In this document: positions 2,043 to 22,354 of the stretch, one piece after another
How positions within the stretch are numbered: the stretch's first letter is position 1
How the letters are laid out: each line of letters starts with the position of its first letter
The notes under the pieces: model-generated
What the model saw: the letters and a program-made list of their open reading frames with translations, nothing else
Told to the model about the DNA's origin: nothing
The model's database searches: none
DNA from: a phage
Length of the DNA: 64,000 nucleotides
NCBI GenBank assembly: GCA_014435945.1
Contig: GCA_014435945.1_4088.1
Direction: 5' to 3' (one strand)
Position numbers and translations under genes: made by a program

Positions 2043-2257
2043 TGACTACCAATGAAATGATGCAGGTTATTTGGGATAAAGGTTGTGATATTAAAATCAC
2101 TAGTACTGATGTTCGTGTATTCAAAACTGAATACATGGAGTACTTGGACCTTGATACTTATAATAATATTGTATCAATTGAACACAAAGGTGCAGTACTG
2201 GAAACAATTGACGTAGTACTGAAGAAAGCTACCGACCTATTAGGAGTGGCAGTGTGA
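2042..2257 (+). CDS. hypothetical protein
   Basis: ORF track; overlapping start/stop coupling. Confidence 0.45.
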   Translation: MTTNEMMQVIWDKGCDIKITSTDVRVFKTEYMEYLDLDTYNNIVSIEHKGAVLETIDVVLKKATDLLGVAV

Positions 2258-2400
2258 ATAACAAAGAGTGGGAAGATTACCGCAAGAAGTGCAGGGAGTT
2301 TGATAAAGAACTTACTGGTGCAGTGAATGCGGTAATGTGGGTATCTTCAATTATTGCAGTACTTGGTTTGGGTTCTATTATTATTAATAAATTTTTATAG
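2254..2400 (+). CDS. putative 48-aa protein with C-terminal TM helix (GTG start)
   Basis: Read manually; fills gap between neighbours; GTG overlaps upstream stop. Confidence 0.3.
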   Translation: MNNKEWEDYRKKCREFDKELTGAVNAVMWVSSIIAVLGLGSIIINKFL

Positions 2401-2408
2401 GAATTCCC

Positions 2409-2609
2409 ATGCTTACTTTATATCTCGCAGTAGTTCTCACCAATGGTGAGATCACTCGTACTATTGGTGAAGGTGTATATAAAACACCTGACCAGTGCTA
2501 CTCTGCTACTCATTGGCCTCGCGATAGTGGGGATGAAACTCGCACTGAATTCAAATGCATGAAAGTAAAAGGTGATTTTGTTAACCTTAAGGTTATCGAG
2601 GCGAAATAA
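2409..2609 (+). CDS. hypothetical protein
   Basis: ORF track. Confidence 0.45.
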   Translation: MLTLYLAVVLTNGEITRTIGEGVYKTPDQCYSATHWPRDSGDETRTEFKCMKVKGDFVNLKVIEAK

Positions 2610-3124
2610 TGGATATTAATGAGTTGTTGATCTTATTGTTTAATCGTGGAAATGATGTAAGACGTTCTGAATATCAAGACAAAATTCACATTGAAACTGA
2701 TAAATGTTATGGTAAAACAACTCATGAGATTTTGAAGCCAAATGGCAAACGATATGCCGATGTATGTTTTCATGAACGAAGTGATGGTAGTGAAATAATC
2801 AGTACTGAAATTGTGTTTTATGATAGATCCTCGGCAGGTTCGTATGAAATAGAACTTATATATTGTCCTGGTTCAGAAACACACAATAAACGTCAGATAT
2901 TATATGATGTTTATTCACCACCAGGTGTAGCTGAATATTTTGTTATTGATTACAGTACTGAAGAAAGTGTGTTTCAACAGAGCTTGATTCATAACTTCCA
3001 GTTGAATGACCCAAATGTACCAAAGTTGTTCAAACTACTCGATACTATCGATGTTGATTTTGAATTTGTTATGTGCATTAGAACTTCCTTGATCGATGAA
3101 TTTATGGAACTACTTAATATATGA
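2609..3124 (+). CDS. hypothetical protein
   Basis: ORF track. Confidence 0.5.
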   Translation: MDINELLILLFNRGNDVRRSEYQDKIHIETDKCYGKTTHEILKPNGKRYADVCFHERSDGSEIISTEIVFYDRSSAGSYEIELIYCPGSETHNKRQILYDVYSPPGVAEYFVIDYSTEESVFQQSLIHNFQLNDPNVPKLFKLLDTIDVDFEFVMCIRTSLIDEFMELLNI

Positions 3125-3342
3125 ATCGTTACTACATTGTTTATGAGCATGTGTCTGAGTTTAATAATGTACGTGGCTATAAGAAAGAAGTACAGAAGAT
3201 TGATGTATTTGTTCGTGCATTAAGTCCAACACATGCACTATTTAAATTGTTTGATGAAGTAACTAAGTACAACACACCAAAAACACAACGCTATGTTGAA
3301 ACAGTACATAGTGTAATACTCACAGAATATGATGGAGAATGA
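3121..3342 (+). CDS. hypothetical protein
   Basis: ORF track. Confidence 0.45.
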   Translation: MNRYYIVYEHVSEFNNVRGYKKEVQKIDVFVRALSPTHALFKLFDEVTKYNTPKTQRYVETVHSVILTEYDGE

Positions 3343-3345
3343 CAA

Positions 3346-3564
3346 ATGAATTTATATCTAGTTGAAGGGTCAGTACAAGTATCCAAGCAAGACGGAGACG
3401 GGTATCGTTTTTCACATGTGGAAAATTTTAAGTACGTAGTAAAGGCCGATGGTCAGTACGACGCAGAAATTCAGGTTGAAGAATCATTCCGTAAGAAGAA
3501 TGATATTGGTAAATTCGAATACCAGAACTTACAATTCACTGTATGGCCTAGCATTAATGACTAA
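3346..3564 (+). CDS. hypothetical protein
   Basis: ORF track. Confidence 0.45.
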   Translation: MNLYLVEGSVQVSKQDGDGYRFSHVENFKYVVKADGQYDAEIQVEESFRKKNDIGKFEYQNLQFTVWPSIND

Positions 3565-3803: not shown

Positions 3804-4466
3804 ATGTTAGTTAATCTTAATTTCATCACTTCTCCTGATTGGGCATTGCGTGGTGTTTCTTTGAACTTTAAAGAAACTAATTTCGACTACATTGGTGATT
3901 GTACTTTAGTTAATGCTACATTTGATCCTCATCATCCTTTTTGGGCTGAGATTCATGATCCTAATGTAAACAATAGTACATCTGTTATGACTATTGTACA
4001 GACGAAACATACAGGTATCCTCTCAGGTTACAGACCTGAACATGCCATCGAGCACTTCACTGATTATGATGTAGTAGATGCATATCCAATGATCCATGAA
4101 GATGGAAGTTTATACACGTCAGAAGACTTCCGTGCTATCTTTAATAGTACTGATAACATTCTACCAAGTGGTCGTCCACGCCCTGAGTCTTATCTTATGC
4201 ACCCGTCTTATGGTGTAGCAGATACGCTTGAACAGATTTTGACGAAGTACAAGAACCTTATTGAAGGTCCAGAAGAAATTGTCTTGTGCTATCATCCAGT
4301 ACTGAAGTCTGACCAACCAGAGAGTGGTGGGTGGCGTTGGCATAAGAATGGTGAGTACATCGGTACTAAGCGTAGTAAAGAACGCTTTGAGTACTTGTAT
4401 GATGAGCCAGATGTTGAGGTTGTTTTATGTTATAATTTTCTTAAGGTGAAAAAGAAATGTATCTAG
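3804..4466 (+). CDS. hypothetical protein (220 aa)
   Basis: ORF track; SD GAGGA upstream. Confidence 0.55.
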   Translation: MLVNLNFITSPDWALRGVSLNFKETNFDYIGDCTLVNATFDPHHPFWAEIHDPNVNNSTSVMTIVQTKHTGILSGYRPEHAIEHFTDYDVVDAYPMIHEDGSLYTSEDFRAIFNSTDNILPSGRPRPESYLMHPSYGVADTLEQILTKYKNLIEGPEEIVLCYHPVLKSDQPESGGWRWHKNGEYIGTKRSKERFEYLYDEPDVEVVLCYNFLKVKKKCI

Positions 4467-4699
4467 TATTGAGTTTTGTAGTCGCATTATTGTTTATGTT
4501 CTACCCTACACTAGTAGCAGTAGCCACTAAACGAAAGCTGGTGGATATCACTACGGTATTCTTGCTAAACGTGGCACTCGTTCTAGTGTCTATTATCATT
4601 CCCGTGAACTTTACGGTTATTGACATGGCATCTGTATTACTATTCGTCTTCAGTTATCTTATGCTTATTGAAGAAAAACCTGTTGACAAACGTTTGTAG
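4457..4699 (+). CDS. small membrane protein (2 predicted TM)
   Basis: Hydrophobic composition. Confidence 0.45.
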   Translation: MYLVLSFVVALLFMFYPTLVAVATKRKLVDITTVFLLNVALVLVSIIIPVNFTVIDMASVLLFVFSYLMLIEEKPVDKRL

Positions 4700-4712
4700 T
4701 ACTGTATAATGG
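4682..4712 (+). promoter_or_regulatory. sigma70-like promoter TTGACA-N16-TATAAT (AGTACTG before -10)
   Basis: ttgacaaacgtttgtagtactgtataat. Confidence 0.5.
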
Positions 4713-4757
4713 TTCTTGTAGTCTGAAACTTAACACTTAAACTTGAGGATATAAAAC

Positions 4758-5084
4758 ATGTTATCAGTTCTAATTTCAATTCCTGCTCTAATTCTGTTAT
4801 GGGTTATGGTTTTCGAATTCTTCATTAAAGACGAAACCGAGCGTGATGAGTTTCGTGAGTTGTTTATGTTAGACTCACCCATTGCACGAATCTTCTTCGT
4901 TGTAGTACTTATTTCAGTACTGTCATGGTTAGTAAGTTTTGTATTACCAATTGGACCATTTGTTTCAATTATGAATTTAGTTGAGAACATTGTTGGTATT
5001 GTATGGTTTACTAATGCATTGTTTGCTGGTAAAGTTTCCATTTGGTTTGATATCTTGAAAGATAAACTAACTAGTAAGAAGTAA
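4758..5084 (+). CDS. small membrane protein (about 3 TM)
   Basis: Hydrophobic composition; SD GAGGA. Confidence 0.5.
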   Translation: MLSVLISIPALILLWVMVFEFFIKDETERDEFRELFMLDSPIARIFFVVVLISVLSWLVSFVLPIGPFVSIMNLVENIVGIVWFTNALFAGKVSIWFDILKDKLTSKK

Positions 5085-5162
5085 CGTTCAAAAAGTCTCT
5101 AATAGTATTAAATACTTCTGTACAAATAATATGTGCAGAAGTATTGCTCGTTAGAGGTTATA

Positions 5163-5528
5163 ATGAAAAAATATATAAGAATGATAATGGTGTTTGTAGT
5201 ATTCATGCTTTATTCAAGGTTCAGTACAGCCGTACCTGCTTACCTTGATTGTATGGGAAACGATGGAACATGGCATGTACTTTCTAATGACCCACAAAAT
5301 GGAAACAATATTGTCGTAGATGATGAGGTTTACCGTTTCAGGGCCGAGAGTTTGATTGGGAATAAAAAGGTATCGACATATAAATCAGATGCTGGTATAA
5401 TAGCAAATGTAATATTGATAGTGGACCCCAAGACAAAGGATGGGGATATTTACATAGTCATTTATCAAGATTCGTCGAATAAACGCGATCAGGACATTGA
5501 TAAATTGAATATTCATTGTGAACTGTAA
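5163..5528 (+). CDS. secreted protein (signal peptide); start moved to internal ATG with SD
   Basis: N-terminus MKKYIRMIMVFVVFMLYS; GAGG upstream. Confidence 0.5.
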   Translation: MKKYIRMIMVFVVFMLYSRFSTAVPAYLDCMGNDGTWHVLSNDPQNGNNIVVDDEVYRFRAESLIGNKKVSTYKSDAGIIANVILIVDPKTKDGDIYIVIYQDSSNKRDQDIDKLNIHCEL

Positions 5529-5538
5529 GGTATAACAA

Positions 5539-5922
5539 ATGATAAACGATGTAATGCTTTATGTATTAATTACTCCGATTCTTATTAACTCAGTAATAAC
5601 TATTTCAATGGCATTATTTGGTATAGTAGCAATTGTTTATGCTGTTAGTACTGGAAAGTATACTTTAATTAGTAAGGTTGATTCATGGTTCGCATCTGAT
5701 AGTGTACCATATTCAGCTAGTATGATTACGATTGGTATTCTAATCGTTGCATTTACACTGCACTGTATTGGTTTTATTAATACAAGTATTTTTTCAGTTT
5801 TTATTGGTCTATCATTATATCCATCACTTTGGTACTTGATTTATGTAACCGATGTTTGGTATAATAACTACAAGCAGTACAAAGTGAAGAAATCCATTTT
5901 ATCCAAAGGAAACAAATCATGA
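5539..5922 (+). CDS. multi-pass membrane protein
   Basis: Hydrophobic composition. Confidence 0.5.
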   Translation: MINDVMLYVLITPILINSVITISMALFGIVAIVYAVSTGKYTLISKVDSWFASDSVPYSASMITIGILIVAFTLHCIGFINTSIFSVFIGLSLYPSLWYLIYVTDVWYNNYKQYKVKKSILSKGNKS

Positions 5923-6273: not shown

Positions 6274-6465
6274 ATGTTGATTTATCAATGTGATAACATT
6301 CGTGTTATGCAGCATCCCTACTTACAAATCTTTGATGTGCAGCAGTATATGGAAGGTGATGACCCAAGAACCTATGGTCGTAAGTATGATTACTTCACTG
6401 TAAAGCAGTGTCGTAACATCAAAGAAGTACGACAATTAGTTCAAGAACTTCAAAATAAAGGTTGA
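6274..6465 (+). CDS. hypothetical protein (internal ATG with GAGG SD)
   Basis: Avoids 26-nt overlap of track start 6244. Confidence 0.4.
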   Translation: MLIYQCDNIRVMQHPYLQIFDVQQYMEGDDPRTYGRKYDYFTVKQCRNIKEVRQLVQELQNKG

Positions 6466-6500
6466 CTTCGGTCAGCCTTTTTTGTTATAATTATTTCATC
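6458..6500 (+). promoter_or_regulatory. PeSL-like cassette: terminator hairpin (UUCG loop) with embedded TTGACT -35, T-run, TATAAT -10
   Basis: ggttgacttcggtcagccttttttgttataat; resembles RB49-type promoter-early stem-loops. Confidence 0.7.
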
Positions 6501-13060: not shown

Positions 13061-13096
13061 AAGGGTTGACTTCGGTCGGCCCTTTTTGCTATAATC
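13061..13096 (+). promoter_or_regulatory. PeSL-like terminator-promoter cassette
   Basis: gggttgacttcggtcggccctttttgctataat. Confidence 0.7.
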
Positions 13097-17265: not shown

Positions 17266-17356
17266 ATGGATTAAACAATGAAGAAGTGTATCATTCTTTG
17301 TTCTAATCACCATCGCATGGTACATTCTGGTAGACTATGTTTGATTGAAAGAAAAA

Positions 17357-17393
17357 AAGGGTTGACTTCAGTCGGCCCTTTTTGCTATAATCA
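17357..17393 (+). promoter_or_regulatory. PeSL-like terminator-promoter cassette
   Basis: gggttgacttcagtcggccctttttgctataat. Confidence 0.7.
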
Positions 17394-17419
17394 TTTCATC
17401 GAAACGAGAGGATGAATAC

Positions 17420-17935
17420 ATGACACGCATTAACTTAGTACACGTTAAAGAACTTGCTGACCAACATCTGATGGCTGAATATCGTGAACTCCCACGTGTG
17501 TTTGGTGCTGTACAAAAACATGTTCAAGCACGTAAGCGAGTCCGTGATTTCAAAATTAACAGTACTTACCTGTTAGGTTCAGGTCATGTAACATTCTTCT
17601 ACAACAAGTTATTGTACTTACAGAAGCGTCATATTGATATTGTTAACGAATGTTTGCGTCGTGGTATGAAGATTCAAAACACTGAAGTAAACGACATTAG
17701 CGGATTCCCTGCTGAGTTTTGTAATGACTACGTACCATCGGAGTCAGAGATTAAAATGTCTCGTGAGCGTTTGATTGAGAAGCTACAGATGAAGCCTACG
17801 TGGTATAAATTTACTGACGTTGAACGCCCACAGTATGTTAAAGATATGCAGGACGTAAGTAGTAATATAGAATCTAGTACTGATATGTTCGACGAAATTG
17901 AAGAACAAATCAAAGATGAAATGAATAATTATTAA
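17420..17935 (+). CDS. denV: endonuclease V / pyrimidine-dimer DNA glycosylase (DenV family), with about 35-aa acidic C-terminal extension
   Basis: Near-identical to T4 DenV over the N-terminal 60 aa ([42 protein letters not shown]), with weaker similarity through ..PTWYK; catalytic Thr2 and Glu23 conserved. Confidence 0.9.
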
Positions 17936-17940
17936 AGGAA

Positions 17941-17976
17941 AGGGTTGACTTCGGTCAGCCCTTTTTGCTATAATTA
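17941..17976 (+). promoter_or_regulatory. PeSL-like terminator-promoter cassette
   Basis: agggttgacttcggtcagccctttttgctataat. Confidence 0.7.
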
Positions 17977-18000
17977 TTTTATCGAAACGAGAGGTAATAC

Positions 18001-18213
18001 ATGAAACTATCTTTTATACGTTTAGCAGAATTCTTCGGTACTGATATTATTACTTTACAACAAATTGCAGACAATACTTCATTAAGTACACAAGAAGTAC
18101 TTGACTTAGATGTAATTCAGTGCGATAATACTTCCATTGATTTCAAAGAAGGTCTTGTCGAAAAAGATAAGATTCAAGCTAAGATTAATGGTGCTGGACG
18201 GGTTCAGTACTGA
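18001..18213 (+). CDS. hypothetical protein
   Basis: ORF track; downstream of PeSL-like promoter. Confidence 0.45.
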   Translation: MKLSFIRLAEFFGTDIITLQQIADNTSLSTQEVLDLDVIQCDNTSIDFKEGLVEKDKIQAKINGAGRVQY

Positions 18214-18229
18214 AAAGGAGTATTGAGTA

Positions 18230-19378
18230 ATGTTTGAAAAGTACTATTTAAATGAAGATGGTGAGAAAGTTTATATTATTGAAGAATTATGTACTAAATT
18301 TGAGTACATGAAAATAGAAAATGTTCCTGTAAAAAATAAAAAAACTATCGTTAGAATTGATGAAATTAAACTAAAAGCCATTGAAAAAGAAGATACTATT
18401 TTTGGCTTACAGATATCAAACAGTAATCAATTTTTTGGACTAGAAAAGAATAAAGTTCTGTTTAGATGTGGAACATGCAGCACTTTATGTACAAGTTCAC
18501 TGAAAAGTTATCTTATCTCTGGTGGATGTCAGATATGTGGTAAGAAGAAAAGAAAAGAGTACCAAAACACTATCAAAATATCTGAATCTGATGCATTAAA
18601 AGAAATACAAAAAGAGTGTAAACGCGAATCTATTACATTTATCAAATTTGAAGGTGAATTTACTACAAAATTCAAATCTAAATTTTGGTACAAATGTAAA
18701 AACAACCATACTCGTTTATGTGAGAACATTTATGATTTTCTTAATGGTCATAATTGTGTTGAATGTCGTGATTACAGCTCGGCAAAAAAGATTCGTTTGA
18801 ATATTCTAGTAGTCAAATATGAAATAGATAAAAGAAACGCAGTTTGTAATAATACCTTTATTGGATTTGTGGGAGGTGTTTATGAAACATCAAAAACAAA
18901 ATTACATTTACAGTGTAATGATTGTAATAACCCATTTTATCCATCATATCATAACTATATATCATCTGAGTCTTCATGTCCTACCTGTTCATCAGGTGAG
19001 AGTAAGAATTTAGTTGATATTGATGGTATGTTAGAAGATGATACCATAAAAGAGAAACGCTTCATTGATTGTAAGTTCAAAAAGCCATTACCTTTTGATC
19101 GATTTATTGAAAGTAAACGAATCCTTCTGGAATATGATGGAGTACAACATTTTCAATCAATCAAATTATGGGGCGGCAAAAGTGCTTTTGAACAAAGAAA
19201 GATAAAAGACGCAATAAAAACTGAGTACGCCATCAACAACGGTTACAACTTCATTAGGATTGCATACTATGAAGACCACGTTGCAGTACTGAAATCTTTT
19301 CTAAAACTTATCGAAGATAATCCAGAAAAGCAAATCGTACAGATTTATGGTGAAGTACAAATCTTAGACAAGAAATAA
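18230..19378 (+). CDS. Cys-rich multi-Zn-ribbon protein with C-terminal Vsr/DUF559-like (PD-(D/E)xK) endonuclease motif; candidate homing-type endonuclease
   Basis: Several CxxC pairs; C-terminal EYDGxQH..D..K..A...GY.FIRI pattern. Confidence 0.5.
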   Translation: MFEKYYLNEDGEKVYIIEELCTKFEYMKIENVPVKNKKTIVRIDEIKLKAIEKEDTIFGLQISNSNQFFGLEKNKVLFRCGTCSTLCTSSLKSYLISGGCQICGKKKRKEYQNTIKISESDALKEIQKECKRESITFIKFEGEFTTKFKSKFWYKCKNNHTRLCENIYDFLNGHNCVECRDYSSAKKIRLNILVVKYEIDKRNAVCNNTFIGFVGGVYETSKTKLHLQCNDCNNPFYPSYHNYISSESSCPTCSSGESKNLVDIDGMLEDDTIKEKRFIDCKFKKPLPFDRFIESKRILLEYDGVQHFQSIKLWGGKSAFEQRKIKDAIKTEYAINNGYNFIRIAYYEDHVAVLKSFLKLIEDNPEKQIVQIYGEVQILDKK

Positions 19379-19387
19379 CAATACAAA

Positions 19388-19423
19388 AGGGTTGACTTCG
19401 GTCAGCCCTTTTTGCTATAATTA
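19388..19423 (+). promoter_or_regulatory. PeSL-like terminator-promoter cassette
   Basis: gggttgacttcggtcagccctttttgctataat. Confidence 0.7.
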
Positions 19424-19449
19424 TTTCATCAACTGATGAGGATAACGAA

Positions 19450-20220
19450 ATGACCAGAGAAGCACGTAGCATTCAAATCCAGAAAAACTTCAACTCCATG
19501 ATGGTTGCTCTTGAGTGTTTGCTCGATGATAGCAGTACTGTAAAAAGTATGGTTGTCAGTGGTGCACCTGGTGTTGGTAAGACTTACACCCTGTCACAAC
19601 GCCTCCAGAAAGCTCATGACGCAGCAGAATGGAACGTAGCTACTATCAGTGGTAAGATGACTACTCTTGCTCTGTATGAAGTTCTGTACAAGAATCGTCA
19701 CAGCACTAACGTATTAGTACTGGATGATATGGACAGCATCTTTGATTCAGAAGACGGTATGAACCTGCTCAAAGCAGTACTGGACAGCGGTAAACGTACT
19801 GTGTCTTACATGACTAGCTCTAAGTACTTAACTACCAACGGTATCCCTAACAGCTTTGATTTTAACGGTCGTATCGTATTCATTACTAACAAAGATTTAG
19901 CACTGAATGCTAAAGCTAAAACCAAAATGTCTGCTCACTATGCTGCTCTTATGTCTCGCTCTGTGTATGTTGACTTACAGATCCAGACTAAAAGCGATAT
20001 CATGATTCACATTGAAAACGTAATGAACAAGACCAACATCCTGTCAACTAAAGGTGTTAATAGTAATGGTAGCAAAGCAATCCTGAATTGGATGCTGAAA
20101 CATGAAGATGCACTTCGTGCCCCTTCACTGCGTATGCCTCTGTTGATTTCAGCAGTATACAACAACAACCCGTATGATTGGGAAGAGCAGTGCGAAAATT
20201 TGTTCCTTGAGAAAATTTAA
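19450..20220 (+). CDS. P-loop NTPase (Walker A GAPGVGKT, Walker B VLVLDD)
   Basis: Motifs read directly; codon usage looks less AT-biased than neighbours. Confidence 0.65.
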   Translation: MTREARSIQIQKNFNSMMVALECLLDDSSTVKSMVVSGAPGVGKTYTLSQRLQKAHDAAEWNVATISGKMTTLALYEVLYKNRHSTNVLVLDDMDSIFDSEDGMNLLKAVLDSGKRTVSYMTSSKYLTTNGIPNSFDFNGRIVFITNKDLALNAKAKTKMSAHYAALMSRSVYVDLQIQTKSDIMIHIENVMNKTNILSTKGVNSNGSKAILNWMLKHEDALRAPSLRMPLLISAVYNNNPYDWEEQCENLFLEKI

Positions 20221-20287: not shown

Positions 20288-20626
20288 ATGCTTGAGTTTT
20301 TTAATTCAGATACAATGCTTAGTATTACTTTGATTTATCTGTTTGGTTTTTTCTTTTATCATGCACTAGTTGTAGTACTATGGTATTTTAAAAAGAAAAT
20401 CGTTTTCAAACTGTATCCTGATGGAAACATTTCACTACTTCTTTTCACTATTATCCAAGGTATGTTTGCAATTGTTGGTCTTATCGCACACTTAATTTAT
20501 TGTGCTAATCCACAGTTGAACTCAATATCACAATATATTGTATTCCTTGGATTACTAATTTGGGTGCTGATATACTTGTTTAATCTCATCATCAATGGTA
20601 GAGCAAAAATTCGTGGGGACTTCTAA
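20288..20626 (+). CDS. small multi-pass membrane protein, family M
   Basis: Hydrophobic composition; tandem paralog run. Confidence 0.5.
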   Translation: MLEFFNSDTMLSITLIYLFGFFFYHALVVVLWYFKKKIVFKLYPDGNISLLLFTIIQGMFAIVGLIAHLIYCANPQLNSISQYIVFLGLLIWVLIYLFNLIINGRAKIRGDF

Positions 20627-20973
20627 TGTTTGAATCTTATCTTGAGTTTTTAAAGAGTAGTTCTGTTGCACATTCAATTGCAGGGATTATTCTAACAGGT
20701 TATGTAACATTTTGGGTAGTTATGTTTCTAGGATGGTATTTTAAACGACAATTCTATAAGCGTAATGGTGAAGATTTTATGAATTCTTTCATTAATCAAT
20801 CGTTGTTTGCATCAACATTGATAGCATCTATTGTAGCAACACTCACTGGAAAGGTACTGCCAGCATTCTCCGCAGTTTACGGTACATTGGGTATGATATG
20901 TGTAGTTTTTTACTTGATCATTAAACTTTGTTGTGTTATGATTGACCTTCGAAACAAGATACCGGAGGAATGA
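20626..20973 (+). CDS. small multi-pass membrane protein, family M
   Basis: C-terminus LRNKIPEE; overlapping start/stop. Confidence 0.5.
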   Translation: MFESYLEFLKSSSVAHSIAGIILTGYVTFWVVMFLGWYFKRQFYKRNGEDFMNSFINQSLFASTLIASIVATLTGKVLPAFSAVYGTLGMICVVFYLIIKLCCVMIDLRNKIPEE

Positions 20974-21308
20974 TGGAATATTTTTTACACTTACTGCCGT
21001 GGTATATGAAAGTTAGTACTATGTACTATATTCTTAGTGCTGGATTCTACTTTCTGATGTGGTTCTTCAAACGACCAATTTCAGTATTCATCTCTGATAA
21101 CATGCTGCAATTAAAATTACACGCATGGTTTGGTATGGCGATGATTATGCCAATTATTCACTACTCAATGATTAGTAGAGGGTTCCGTTCCAATGGTGAA
21201 CCAATTGTATTAGTATTCTATTGGGGTTCAACTATTGCATATGTAAGTTTGTTGTTGTTCCCAGTCGTTCATAAATTACGTGCTAAAGTTCCTGATGCGA
21301 GGTACTAA
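20970..21308 (+). CDS. small multi-pass membrane protein, family M
   Basis: C-terminus LRAKVPDARY. Confidence 0.5.
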   Translation: MMEYFLHLLPWYMKVSTMYYILSAGFYFLMWFFKRPISVFISDNMLQLKLHAWFGMAMIMPIIHYSMISRGFRSNGEPIVLVFYWGSTIAYVSLLLFPVVHKLRAKVPDARY

Positions 21309-21622
21309 TGGATATCGTAACATTGATTTACACGCTTTATTCATTCTATTTTATTATGTGTTGGGTTGGATTTTTATTTGTATTGAAGATGTTTGATTAT
21401 GTTGAAAAACAGATAAAAGAATTTTGTATTCCTTTTATTGGGTCAACCATAATTAGTATTACTTGTTTGTATTATTTGGTATGTGATCCACCTGTTAATA
21501 CAGCAATGATTGACTTCATGTTATTACCAACAACTGTTATTTTTTTATGTAGTCTGATGCCACCGATTAGTCGTGGGCTAACCGAATTTAGACGCAATCA
21601 AAAGCGTAAACGAGGGATGTGA
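21308..21622 (+). CDS. small multi-pass membrane protein, family M
   Basis: Hydrophobic; basic C-terminus. Confidence 0.5.
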   Translation: MDIVTLIYTLYSFYFIMCWVGFLFVLKMFDYVEKQIKEFCIPFIGSTIISITCLYYLVCDPPVNTAMIDFMLLPTTVIFLCSLMPPISRGLTEFRRNQKRKRGM

Positions 21623-21990
21623 TGGAAATTACACTTATTATATTAACTGCTATGTTGTTTATTAGTACAATTGTTATTATTGGCAAGTTCTTCTGTGTAT
21701 CCTTCTTGGAAACCGTATACGATGAAATTGCTGATGATTATGAATTACATGCGGGATTTTTTACTACGTATTGGATTAGTTTATTACTACTTATCACTGT
21801 ATGGATTTTACATATATTCAAATGGGGTATGGTAGATGGTGATCCAGTACTGGCAATTATCTGTGTAGTGTTTGGTCTACTCGGTGGTGCTGTCCATAAT
21901 CTGATGGTAATTTGGCAAACCGTACAATATGTATTAGTTCCACATTTTCAGAGAATGCACCAAAGCATCAAATACCGCAAACGAGGATAA
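21619..21990 (+). CDS. small multi-pass membrane protein, family M
   Basis: Hydrophobic; basic C-terminus. Confidence 0.5.
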   Translation: MMEITLIILTAMLFISTIVIIGKFFCVSFLETVYDEIADDYELHAGFFTTYWISLLLLITVWILHIFKWGMVDGDPVLAIICVVFGLLGGAVHNLMVIWQTVQYVLVPHFQRMHQSIKYRKRG

Positions 21991-21991
21991 C

Positions 21992-22354
21992 ATGAATAAT
22001 ATTGAATTATCTTTTATTGGTCAATTAATGGTAATGGCGTATACATTTATCTTCTCACTGAATGCATTCGTGTGCATTGGGAAGTACTTCCATAAGCGAC
22101 CATTATCAAATATATATGATGTAATACAAAGGAGATATAGCCCAGCATATACTGTGTTGAGTACAGCATTCAATTTTGGTTTTATTCTAATGCTGGTTGC
22201 ATTATTAACATCGAGTTTAAATTTTATAACATTTGGTATTATGGTATGTTCACTAACACTGAGTGTGGTTATTCTCTGTGCATCCGTTGAGTTGATGGCG
22301 TGGATGTATTATAAGATTTCCGAAATCCATGACCGTTTAGGTAAGAGGAACTAA
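21992..22354 (+). CDS. small multi-pass membrane protein, family M
   Basis: Hydrophobic; basic C-terminus. Confidence 0.5.
   Translation: MNNIELSFIGQLMVMAYTFIFSLNAFVCIGKYFHKRPLSNIYDVIQRRYSPAYTVLSTAFNFGFILMLVALLTSSLNFITFGIMVCSLTLSVVILCASVELMAWMYYKISEIHDRLGKRN

Follow-up and report, generated by a model that had tools for sequence, protein, structure and literature searches.

The 382-aa protein encoded at 18230..19378 of an Asteriusvirus sequence is likely to be an active, free-standing homing endonuclease, in which three tandem zinc modules precede a C-terminal nuclease domain with a predicted Vsr-like fold. It is most likely a further member of a published, very large homing endonuclease design common in viruses, its only mildly unusual aspects being the polymorphic slot in which the gene lies and an N-terminal domain shared with other occupants of that slot. 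Directly supported are the predicted fold, the conserved active-site residues, the zinc repeats, purifying selection, the sporadic distribution of the gene, its replacement in related phages exactly from start to stop codon, and the existence of empty sites; nuclease activity and homing are what we infer from them.

Gene and genomic setting

The window (the whole stretch of 64,000 nucleotides that was analysed) comes, according to megablast, from an Asteriusvirus, a jumbo E. coli phage of ~350 kb in the PBECO4/121Q group, its nearest record being TH47 (99.2% nucleotide identity). The preliminary description, made from the letters of the window, had taken it for a T4-type genome, which it is not. 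That description was exact about the gene itself: the list of open reading frames of the 64-kb window contains an ATG-start ORF of 382 aa plus stop at 18230..19378 on the + strand, and the cysteine-rich product, said to have at least four CxxC pairs, has five CxxC motifs (aa 80, 100, 176, 229 and 250) and 17 cysteines altogether. A Shine-Dalgarno sequence (AAAGGAG, 18215-18221) is found 8 nt 5' of the ATG, and the GC content is 0.27-0.32 over the gene versus 0.35-0.42 in its flanks. The gene had also been placed next to denV, which is correct as to nearness and incorrect as to adjacency, a conserved 70-aa ORF (orf70) lying between the two. The genes of the locus are as follows.

17420..17935, + strand: denV (Pyr_excise, E 9e-15; phrog_1183, E 9e-59)
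18001..18213, + strand: orf70 (phrog_34150, PHROG match at 2e-48), left border of the variable slot, outside the exchanged unit
18230..19378, + strand: likely homing-endonuclease gene (ORF; PHROG matches; homology to relatives breaking off at ATG and stop; dN/dS 0.16)
19450..20220, + strand: conserved gene for a 256-aa P-loop (AAA) ATPase (phrog_1250, E 7e-103)

Some features of the surrounding genes can be noted in passing. The denV homolog is 171 aa long and its match to Pyr_excise and phrog_1183 stops near aa 133, the C-terminus being an acidic extension of ~38 aa; some relatives are annotated with a protein of ~145 aa. A 45-aa ORF 5' of denV (17278-17415, + strand, MKKCIILCSNHHRMVHSG...) resembles the 3' remnant of an HNH endonuclease gene, which is intact (137 aa) at the same place in JP4, EC.P1 and vB_Ec-M-J; near denV there would then be a second endonuclease gene, in degraded form. 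The 256-aa ATPase has a weak, sub-threshold likeness to the AAA, STAND, Hda and Orc1/Cdc6 families, and its GenBank labels in relatives vary ('clamp loader', 'FleQ', 'thioredoxin'). On the 3' side of the ATPase gene, six successive and often overlapping ORFs (20288-22354, + strand; 104-123 aa, very hydrophobic) look like tandem paralogous small membrane proteins, the copy number of which varies, some relatives having an extra copy of 113 aa. Within the 64-kb window, neither the nuclease domain nor the N-terminal part nor orf70 was found to have a paralog.

Domain structure of the protein

The protein can be divided into six parts, all on the + strand.

18230..18337, + strand: small beta-rich N-terminal domain, aa 1-36 (MFEKYYLNEDGEKVY...; AF2 strands at aa 5-7, 13-19 and 22-27)
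18338..18574, + strand: zinc module A, aa 37-115, putative ligands C80, C83, C100 and C103 (in-register alignment; AF2 pLDDT 81-93)
18575..18799, + strand: zinc module B, aa 116-190, DUF4379 treble-clef type, putative ligands C156, H160, C176 and C179 (Pfam and in-register alignment)
18800..18994, + strand: zinc module C, aa 191-255, CapR-homology type, putative ligands C229, C232, C250 and C253 (CapR match in homolog P0002)
18995..19309, + strand: Vsr-like nuclease domain (EDxHD-type, PD-(D/E)xK superfamily), aa 256-360 (predicted fold and conserved residues)
19310..19375, + strand: C-terminal tail, aa 361-382 (...KQIVQIYGEVQILDKK; AF2 strands at aa 367-372 and 375-380)

The three modules, of ~73 aa each, align in register, with an invariant first cysteine and a second CxxC knuckle. 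Module A has a weak Pfam match to Zn_ribbon_12 (aa 66-88), module B matches Pfam DUF4379 at aa 143-180 (E 9e-6; 26.3 bits, cut-off 24.5), and for module C a Pfam CapR match is found at aa 208-254 of P0002, a 73%-identical homolog (E 4.6e-8), C250 being invariant and C253 nearly invariant among homologs. Repeated Pfam matches to CapR, DUF4379 and DUF723 occur in the homologs, all over the same cysteine modules of ~60-70 aa. The N-terminal region consists of three zinc modules, and the Pfam scan gave no NUMOD or HTH match in it. The full-length AlphaFold2 model has a mean pLDDT of 86 and a pTM of 0.41, a low value that is expected of modules arranged like beads on a string. In 27 homologs, conservation is strong over the C-terminal ~125 aa, and the middle region is variable in both length and sequence. 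Most family members end ~6 residues past the nuclease domain; the tail, a predicted beta-hairpin that is highly conserved among Asteriusvirus-type homologs, is specific to that lineage, and a role in dimerisation is a guess.

The segment that the preliminary description had compared with the PD-(D/E)xK core of Vsr/DUF559 endonucleases (aa 299-346, LLEYDGVQHF...QRKIKDAIKTEYAINNGYNFIRIAY, the same C-terminal segment also being given as LLEYDGVQHF...KDAIKTEYAINNGYNFIRIAY) belongs to a domain with a predicted Vsr fold and invariant putative catalytic residues. A Foldseek comparison of the full-length model with the PDB gave nothing significant (Vsr at probability 0.80, E 0.33), and the nuclease domain was therefore modelled alone; the structure so predicted has the Vsr endonuclease fold, other PD-(D/E)xK nucleases ranking after it. 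The putative active site is formed by D290, E301, D303, H307, D327 and K330, and these six residues as well as G304 are invariant in all aligned family members (162/162), which bears out the conservation on which the preliminary description had made its reading depend. Their order and spacing match D51, H64, H69 and D97 of Vsr and D196, N208, H213 and D222 of I-Bth0305I, which together with E25 of Vsr make up the composite EDxHD motif (PMC3239194). Judging from the register of this motif, D290, D303, H307 and D327 would be its equivalents, the first Glu being ambiguous (E257 or E275).

The sequence comparisons are far less telling than the predicted structure. Aligned by hhalign with E. coli Vsr, the domain profile pairs PLPFD290RF with PGRPD51F of Vsr at a probability of only 0.06. 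A search of all PDB sequences with the same profile (E<=10) returned neither 3R3P nor Vsr and just AbaSI (E 0.24), the cleavage domain of which is reportedly described as Vsr-like in the AbaSI structure paper; the sole match of the full protein to PDB sequences, a flavodoxin (E 0.13), is spurious. Family membership rests on predicted structure because there is no significant sequence link to Vsr or I-Bth0305I, and the failure to find sequence homology to the I-Bth0305I clade fits the 'outgroup' label used in PMC12350094 (see below). Comparison with nuclease profiles, which had been suggested as a check, succeeded in PHROG, where phrog_559, phrog_681 and phrog_9084 are matched (E 5e-39 to 9e-17; labels HNH endonuclease, endonuclease and homing endonuclease), but not with Vsr in hhalign or with Pfam DUF559 (PF04480), the match to which (aa 272-343, E 0.061) misses the gathering threshold of 20.6 bits; the structural guess of that description is borne out by the predicted fold. 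No HNH family appeared in the Pfam scan at E<=1, nor did that scan match T5orf172 or GIY-YIG to the protein. The label 'HNH endonuclease', carried by phrog_559 and several GenBank relatives, is a misnomer, the protein having no HNH match and a predicted Vsr fold instead.

A polymorphic slot between orf70 and the AAA-ATPase gene

Only one of 78 related phage records, TH47, carries the allele of the window (99.7% aa identity). In the other relatives, the slot between orf70 and the AAA-ATPase gene holds at least four other kinds of occupant, or nothing.

JP4, EcMJ, SHEFM2K and EJP2: Vsr-type proteins of 365-474 aa
PBECO4, 121Q, UB, E9.1, A4, phAPEC6 and Ecwhy_1: phrog_681-type proteins with a different C-terminal domain
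Turkey3 and BF17: an unrelated gene pair
WPEC5: fragmented small ORFs

The preliminary description had proposed to look for absence of the gene at the same locus in relatives, and such sites exist: denV of EC.P1 is directly followed by the AAA-ATPase gene, the junction of this empty site lying within a 45-bp repeat found on either side of the cassette in the window, and SP27 is without orf70 and the endonuclease gene. The slot of WPEC5 (4230-5729) contains five ORFs of 59-114 aa, probably one broken endonuclease gene, and this phage has a further gene pair labelled 'endonuclease' and 'DUF4379 domain' between denV and orf70 (2144-3527). No Pfam name was obtained for the alternative C-terminal domain of the phrog_681-type occupants.

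The boundaries of the slot are sharp. Nucleotide homology of relatives to the window ends at the ATG (18230-18234) and returns at the stop codon (19373-19386); alleles with a conserved 5' end extend the homology to ~18274-18286, and in those with a conserved 3' end it returns from ~19213. In 14/14 inspected relatives with orf70, the annotated gene 3' of it has the same start position, +229 or +283 nt from the ATG of orf70, and apart from those of 121Q and UB all these alleles share one Shine-Dalgarno sequence and one start codon. What these alignments show to be exchanged in the slot is the gene at 18230..19378 itself. Both orf70 and the AAA-ATPase gene are complete ORFs; no host gene is interrupted, and the endonuclease gene is free-standing.

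Exchange also seems to have affected parts of the protein. The first 60 aa resemble those of the slot proteins of JP4 (48%) and PBECO4 (42%) and, over 29 aa, of EcMJ (55%), so that the same N-terminal domain of ~36-60 aa is joined to a Vsr-type nuclease in the window, JP4 and EcMJ and to another C-terminal domain in PBECO4. In the latter (4230-5369, 379 aa, phrog_681), the first ~60 aa correspond to window positions 18230-18409 and the C-terminal domain is a different one of nuclease type ('...GCTETFNNIHR...GEVIL'), which is direct evidence of domain shuffling.

The metagenomic homologs P0002 (73% identity) and P0003 lie in the same slot, 5' of the gene for the 256-aa AAA ATPase. In a distant relative, the endonuclease is 73% identical at the aa level, denV 73% and the AAA ATPase 56%; since the divergent homolog is as diverged as denV, long vertical residence is inseparable from transfer. 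As a separate observation, all occupants of the endonuclease slot are located directly 5' of the ATPase gene, even in distant metagenomic relatives whose ATPase is 56% identical.

In T-even phages, free-standing homing endonuclease genes belonging to different families are known to take each other's place at a single locus (PMC2988022), and nuclease genes mark boundaries of genetic exchange (PMC10448857). The pattern of the slot matches that of the T-even free-standing homing endonucleases and of such exchange-boundary nuclease genes. Given the sporadic allele, the ORF-exact replacement and the empty sites, we judge the homing-endonuclease reading, already raised in the preliminary description, to be correct.

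Sequences bordering the gene

Three elements around the gene may bear on its expression.

17939..17983, + strand: hairpin-terminator and sigma70-like promoter (GGGTTGAC-TTCG-GTCAGCCC, T-run, TTGACT-18-TATAAT), 5' of orf70
18203..18227, + strand: possible RNA hairpin (from folding) with a 9-bp stem and a 7-nt loop, partly covering AAAGGAG
19386..19443, + strand: second terminator/promoter copy, right border of the slot (repeat alignment and promoter scan)

The first is the likely promoter of an orf70-endonuclease transcript, and the last probably terminates that transcript and drives the AAA-ATPase gene. They contain copies of a repeat element (GGGTTGACTTCGGTCAGCCC-TTTTT..TATAAT) made up of an 8-bp stem, a TTCG loop, a T-run and a near-consensus sigma70 promoter (11/12 with TG extension in a promoter scan). 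Five copies are present in the window, all on the + strand (6459-6491, 13063-13095, 17359-17391, 17942-17974 and 19389-19421), versus 0 expected by chance, and they bound gene cassettes. It is within this element, the 45-bp repeat mentioned above, that the junction in EC.P1 lies. The element recalls the promoter-stem-loop cassettes of T4-type phages, which are thought to mediate module shuffling.

The gene orf70, probably co-transcribed with the endonuclease gene, is present as a single copy in 29 related records, with 91-100% aa identity except in EJP2 (78.6%). The sole carrier-specific changes near the endonuclease gene are two, located 5-17 nt 5' of its ATG and found in the window and TH47. 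TGG->TGA at 18211-18213 ends orf70 at 70 aa, not 79, removing an overlap with the endonuclease gene, and A->G at 18225 creates, with A at 18222, the 9-bp hairpin that lies partly over the Shine-Dalgarno sequence. This hairpin has a folding energy of -8.5 kcal/mol (z -2.06; 8/200 shuffles as stable), and the 101-nt context a z of -3.55; the other alleles are without it and fold differently (-3.2 to -6.3 kcal/mol). Folding weakly suggests an allele-specific hairpin that would sequester the ribosome binding site like those of T4 endonuclease genes, to which no weight is given here, and a tie of the two upstream changes to self-protection or translational control is speculation. In 920 nt of the right flank, where carrier-specific substitutions were sought as a clue to the target site, there are none.

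An abundant and published design

The preliminary description had considered a new architecture possible. The architecture is not new, because the same plan has been published in PMC12350094 (NAR 2025, 'Presence of group II introns in phage genomes') and the zinc modules are already accepted as the parts with which T5orf172 homing endonucleases and the satellite repressor CapR bind DNA (PMC10448857). The former paper describes proteins with 3-5 CapR/DUF4379/DUF723-like domains of ~60 aa followed by an EDxHD/Vsr-like domain of ~100 aa, and sees in this CapR-repeat group, which has thousands of hits in UniProt, a large outgroup to the EDxHD/Vsr homing endonucleases that had gone unrecognised. 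The protein of the window is likewise phage-encoded and has several zinc modules of ~60-70 aa (three, of CapR/DUF4379 type), a C-terminal Vsr-like domain of ~100 aa and the genomic behaviour of a selfish element. It differs from the published group in its extra N-terminal domain of ~36 aa and its conserved C-terminal tail of 22 aa, and in being free-standing between genes, whereas the published examples lie inside group I/II introns. We found no biochemically characterised member of the CapR-repeat and Vsr-like group in the literature.

To judge from predicted structures, the combination of zinc modules and a Vsr-like domain appears to be common to phages and nucleocytoplasmic large DNA viruses. 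A search of 1.84 billion representative proteins with the nuclease-domain profile matched 37,151 clusters at E<=1e-3 (17,213 at E<=1e-10), an abundance that likewise speaks against novelty. In the best 162 of the 37,151 clusters the domain stands at the C-terminus, preceded by a median of 210 residues, and 84% of them have at least two CxxC motifs before it. The full-length model matched 235 viral structure models in BFVD at E<=1e-3, including 'homing endonuclease' and 'group I intron protein' entries of Bacillus, Enterococcus, Lactobacillus and Listeria phages and of phage RaK2. BFVD matches were also seen in giant eukaryotic viruses (Klosneuvirus, Barrevirus, Terrestrivirus, Orpheovirus, and the Mimivirus and Marseillevirus lineages).

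Among characterised enzymes, the EDxHD prototype I-Bth0305I (recA intron of Bacillus phage 0305phi8-36, PDB 3R3P; PMC3239194) is intron-encoded and binds DNA through NUMOD/helix-turn-helix elements, not zinc modules. The 'x' of EDxHD is Asn in that enzyme and Asp (D303) in the window protein, the family of which has E301 and K330 as additional invariant residues; sequence-level similarity between the two is not detectable. E. coli Vsr (PDB 1CW0/1VSR) is a host repair enzyme, small and of a single domain, which nicks DNA at T:G mismatches. Its structural zinc site, intercalating aromatic residues and dcm linkage have no counterpart in the window protein, and there is no sequence similarity. The nuclease domain of the latter (aa 256-360), with one Cys (C281) and two His, is without an internal zinc site, in this respect like I-Bth0305I and unlike Vsr, and the neighbours of its gene are orf70 and the AAA-ATPase gene, not a methyltransferase gene. 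The two known enzymes also differ in cleavage, Vsr nicking DNA whereas the I-Bth0305I dimer makes a double-strand break.

As far as the papers citing it describe it (Sandegren et al. 2005, cited in PMC3239194 and PMC2988022), Hef of the T4-related phage U5 is a free-standing homing endonuclease of Vsr type, encoded in the nrd region and cutting nrdB. On that account it resembles the window gene in being free-standing in a large lytic coliphage and in occupying a locus that elsewhere holds an endonuclease gene of a different family, a replacement also seen among the slot alleles. The T5orf172 endonucleases of ICP1 and other phages (PMC10448857) share repeated zinc modules, modular shuffling and a position at genetic-exchange boundaries; the catalytic domain is T5orf172 in the ICP1-type enzymes and Vsr-like in the window protein.

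Proposed mechanism and alternative explanations

Set against the 73%-identical homolog, all 382 codons can be aligned gap-free, with a dN/dS of 0.16 for the whole gene and of 0.12 for the nuclease domain; 12/12 putative zinc ligands and 6/6 putative catalytic residues are kept. A gap-free alignment of this length with such a ratio indicates that the ORF is not a chance reading frame, and the dN/dS of 0.16 that the protein is maintained.

If the protein is a homing endonuclease, its three tandem CapR/DUF4379-type modules, perhaps together with the N-terminal domain, would bind a long DNA target, which the C-terminal Vsr-like domain would cut through a metal-dependent site (D290, D303, H307 and D327, plus E301 and K330). 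When a carrier and a related phage lacking the allele infect the same cell, the rival genome would be cleaved by the enzyme within or close to the orf70/AAA-ATPase region, and its repair with the carrier genome as template would give the rival the gene together with some of its flanks. The DNA of the carrier would escape, its target being disrupted or altered. That the cut is a double-strand break is only an assumption, because Vsr itself is a nicking enzyme.

The nuclease could instead be a weapon against host DNA or against competitors (satellites, plasmids, unrelated phages), comparable to the anti-satellite nuclease Odn of ICP1. Nucleases derived from homing endonucleases have been co-opted in phage-satellite conflicts (PMC10448857), the target could be non-phage DNA, and the gene is probably behind an early-type sigma70-like promoter. 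We nevertheless find this explanation improbable, as defence and anti-defence profiles were unmatched (PADLOC and NCBIfam, with which the endonuclease, orf70 and the AAA ATPase were scanned, returned no meaningful match), the allele is rare, close relatives on the same host species having unrelated slot genes or nothing, and three sequence-reading modules suit a long specific target rather than bulk degradation of host DNA.

It is very improbable that the protein is a domesticated endonuclease that now serves mainly as a sequence-specific DNA-binding regulator like CapR, its nuclease being inactive or irrelevant. The putative catalytic residues are invariant in the 162 relatives and the window protein, dN/dS is as low in the nuclease domain (0.12) as in the rest, and a dispensable gene, absent or replaced in nearly all close relatives, is a misfit for a needed regulator. 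These points outweigh the homology of the zinc modules to the DNA-binding domain of CapR, itself a known example of a repressor that arose from the DNA-binding domain of a homing endonuclease (PMC8096241, PMC10448857), as well as the purifying selection on the gene.

Least credible is a decaying, inactive remnant of a homing endonuclease that persists in the slot. Homing endonuclease genes often degenerate after fixation, WPEC5 has a fragmented occupant in the same slot, and the ORF just 5' of denV in the window looks like such a remnant of an HNH endonuclease gene, but the ORF of 382 codons is unbroken, with 99.7% identity in TH47, and the ungapped homolog, the dN/dS of 0.16 and the retention of all zinc ligands and catalytic residues argue against both decay and loss of catalysis. 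A two-gene defence-like system of ATPase and nuclease was rejected, the ATPase gene being a core gene, found also where the endonuclease gene is missing, and the PADLOC and NCBIfam scans having no meaningful match.

Implications

As a discovery the probable homing endonuclease described here matters little, the domain plan being published and abundant and locus-level replacement of endonuclease genes being well known in T-even phages. It corrects database labels, relatives of the gene being annotated as 'HNH endonuclease', and it has some practical value, since E. coli phages that can be grown offer natural sites without the gene (EC.P1, SP27) as well as several other alleles, which eases target mapping and homing crosses. 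A further reading, which we think unlikely, is that the slot between orf70 and the AAA-ATPase gene is a dedicated 'landing pad' for which endonuclease genes with diverse catalytic domains compete. If the shared N-terminal domain addresses one common target, catalytic domains would be swapped onto a fixed targeting module, and the enzymes would serve chiefly as weapons of mutual exclusion when jumbo phages infect the same cell. For the biology of the Asteriusvirus genomes, the slot documents a sharply bounded recombination hotspot.
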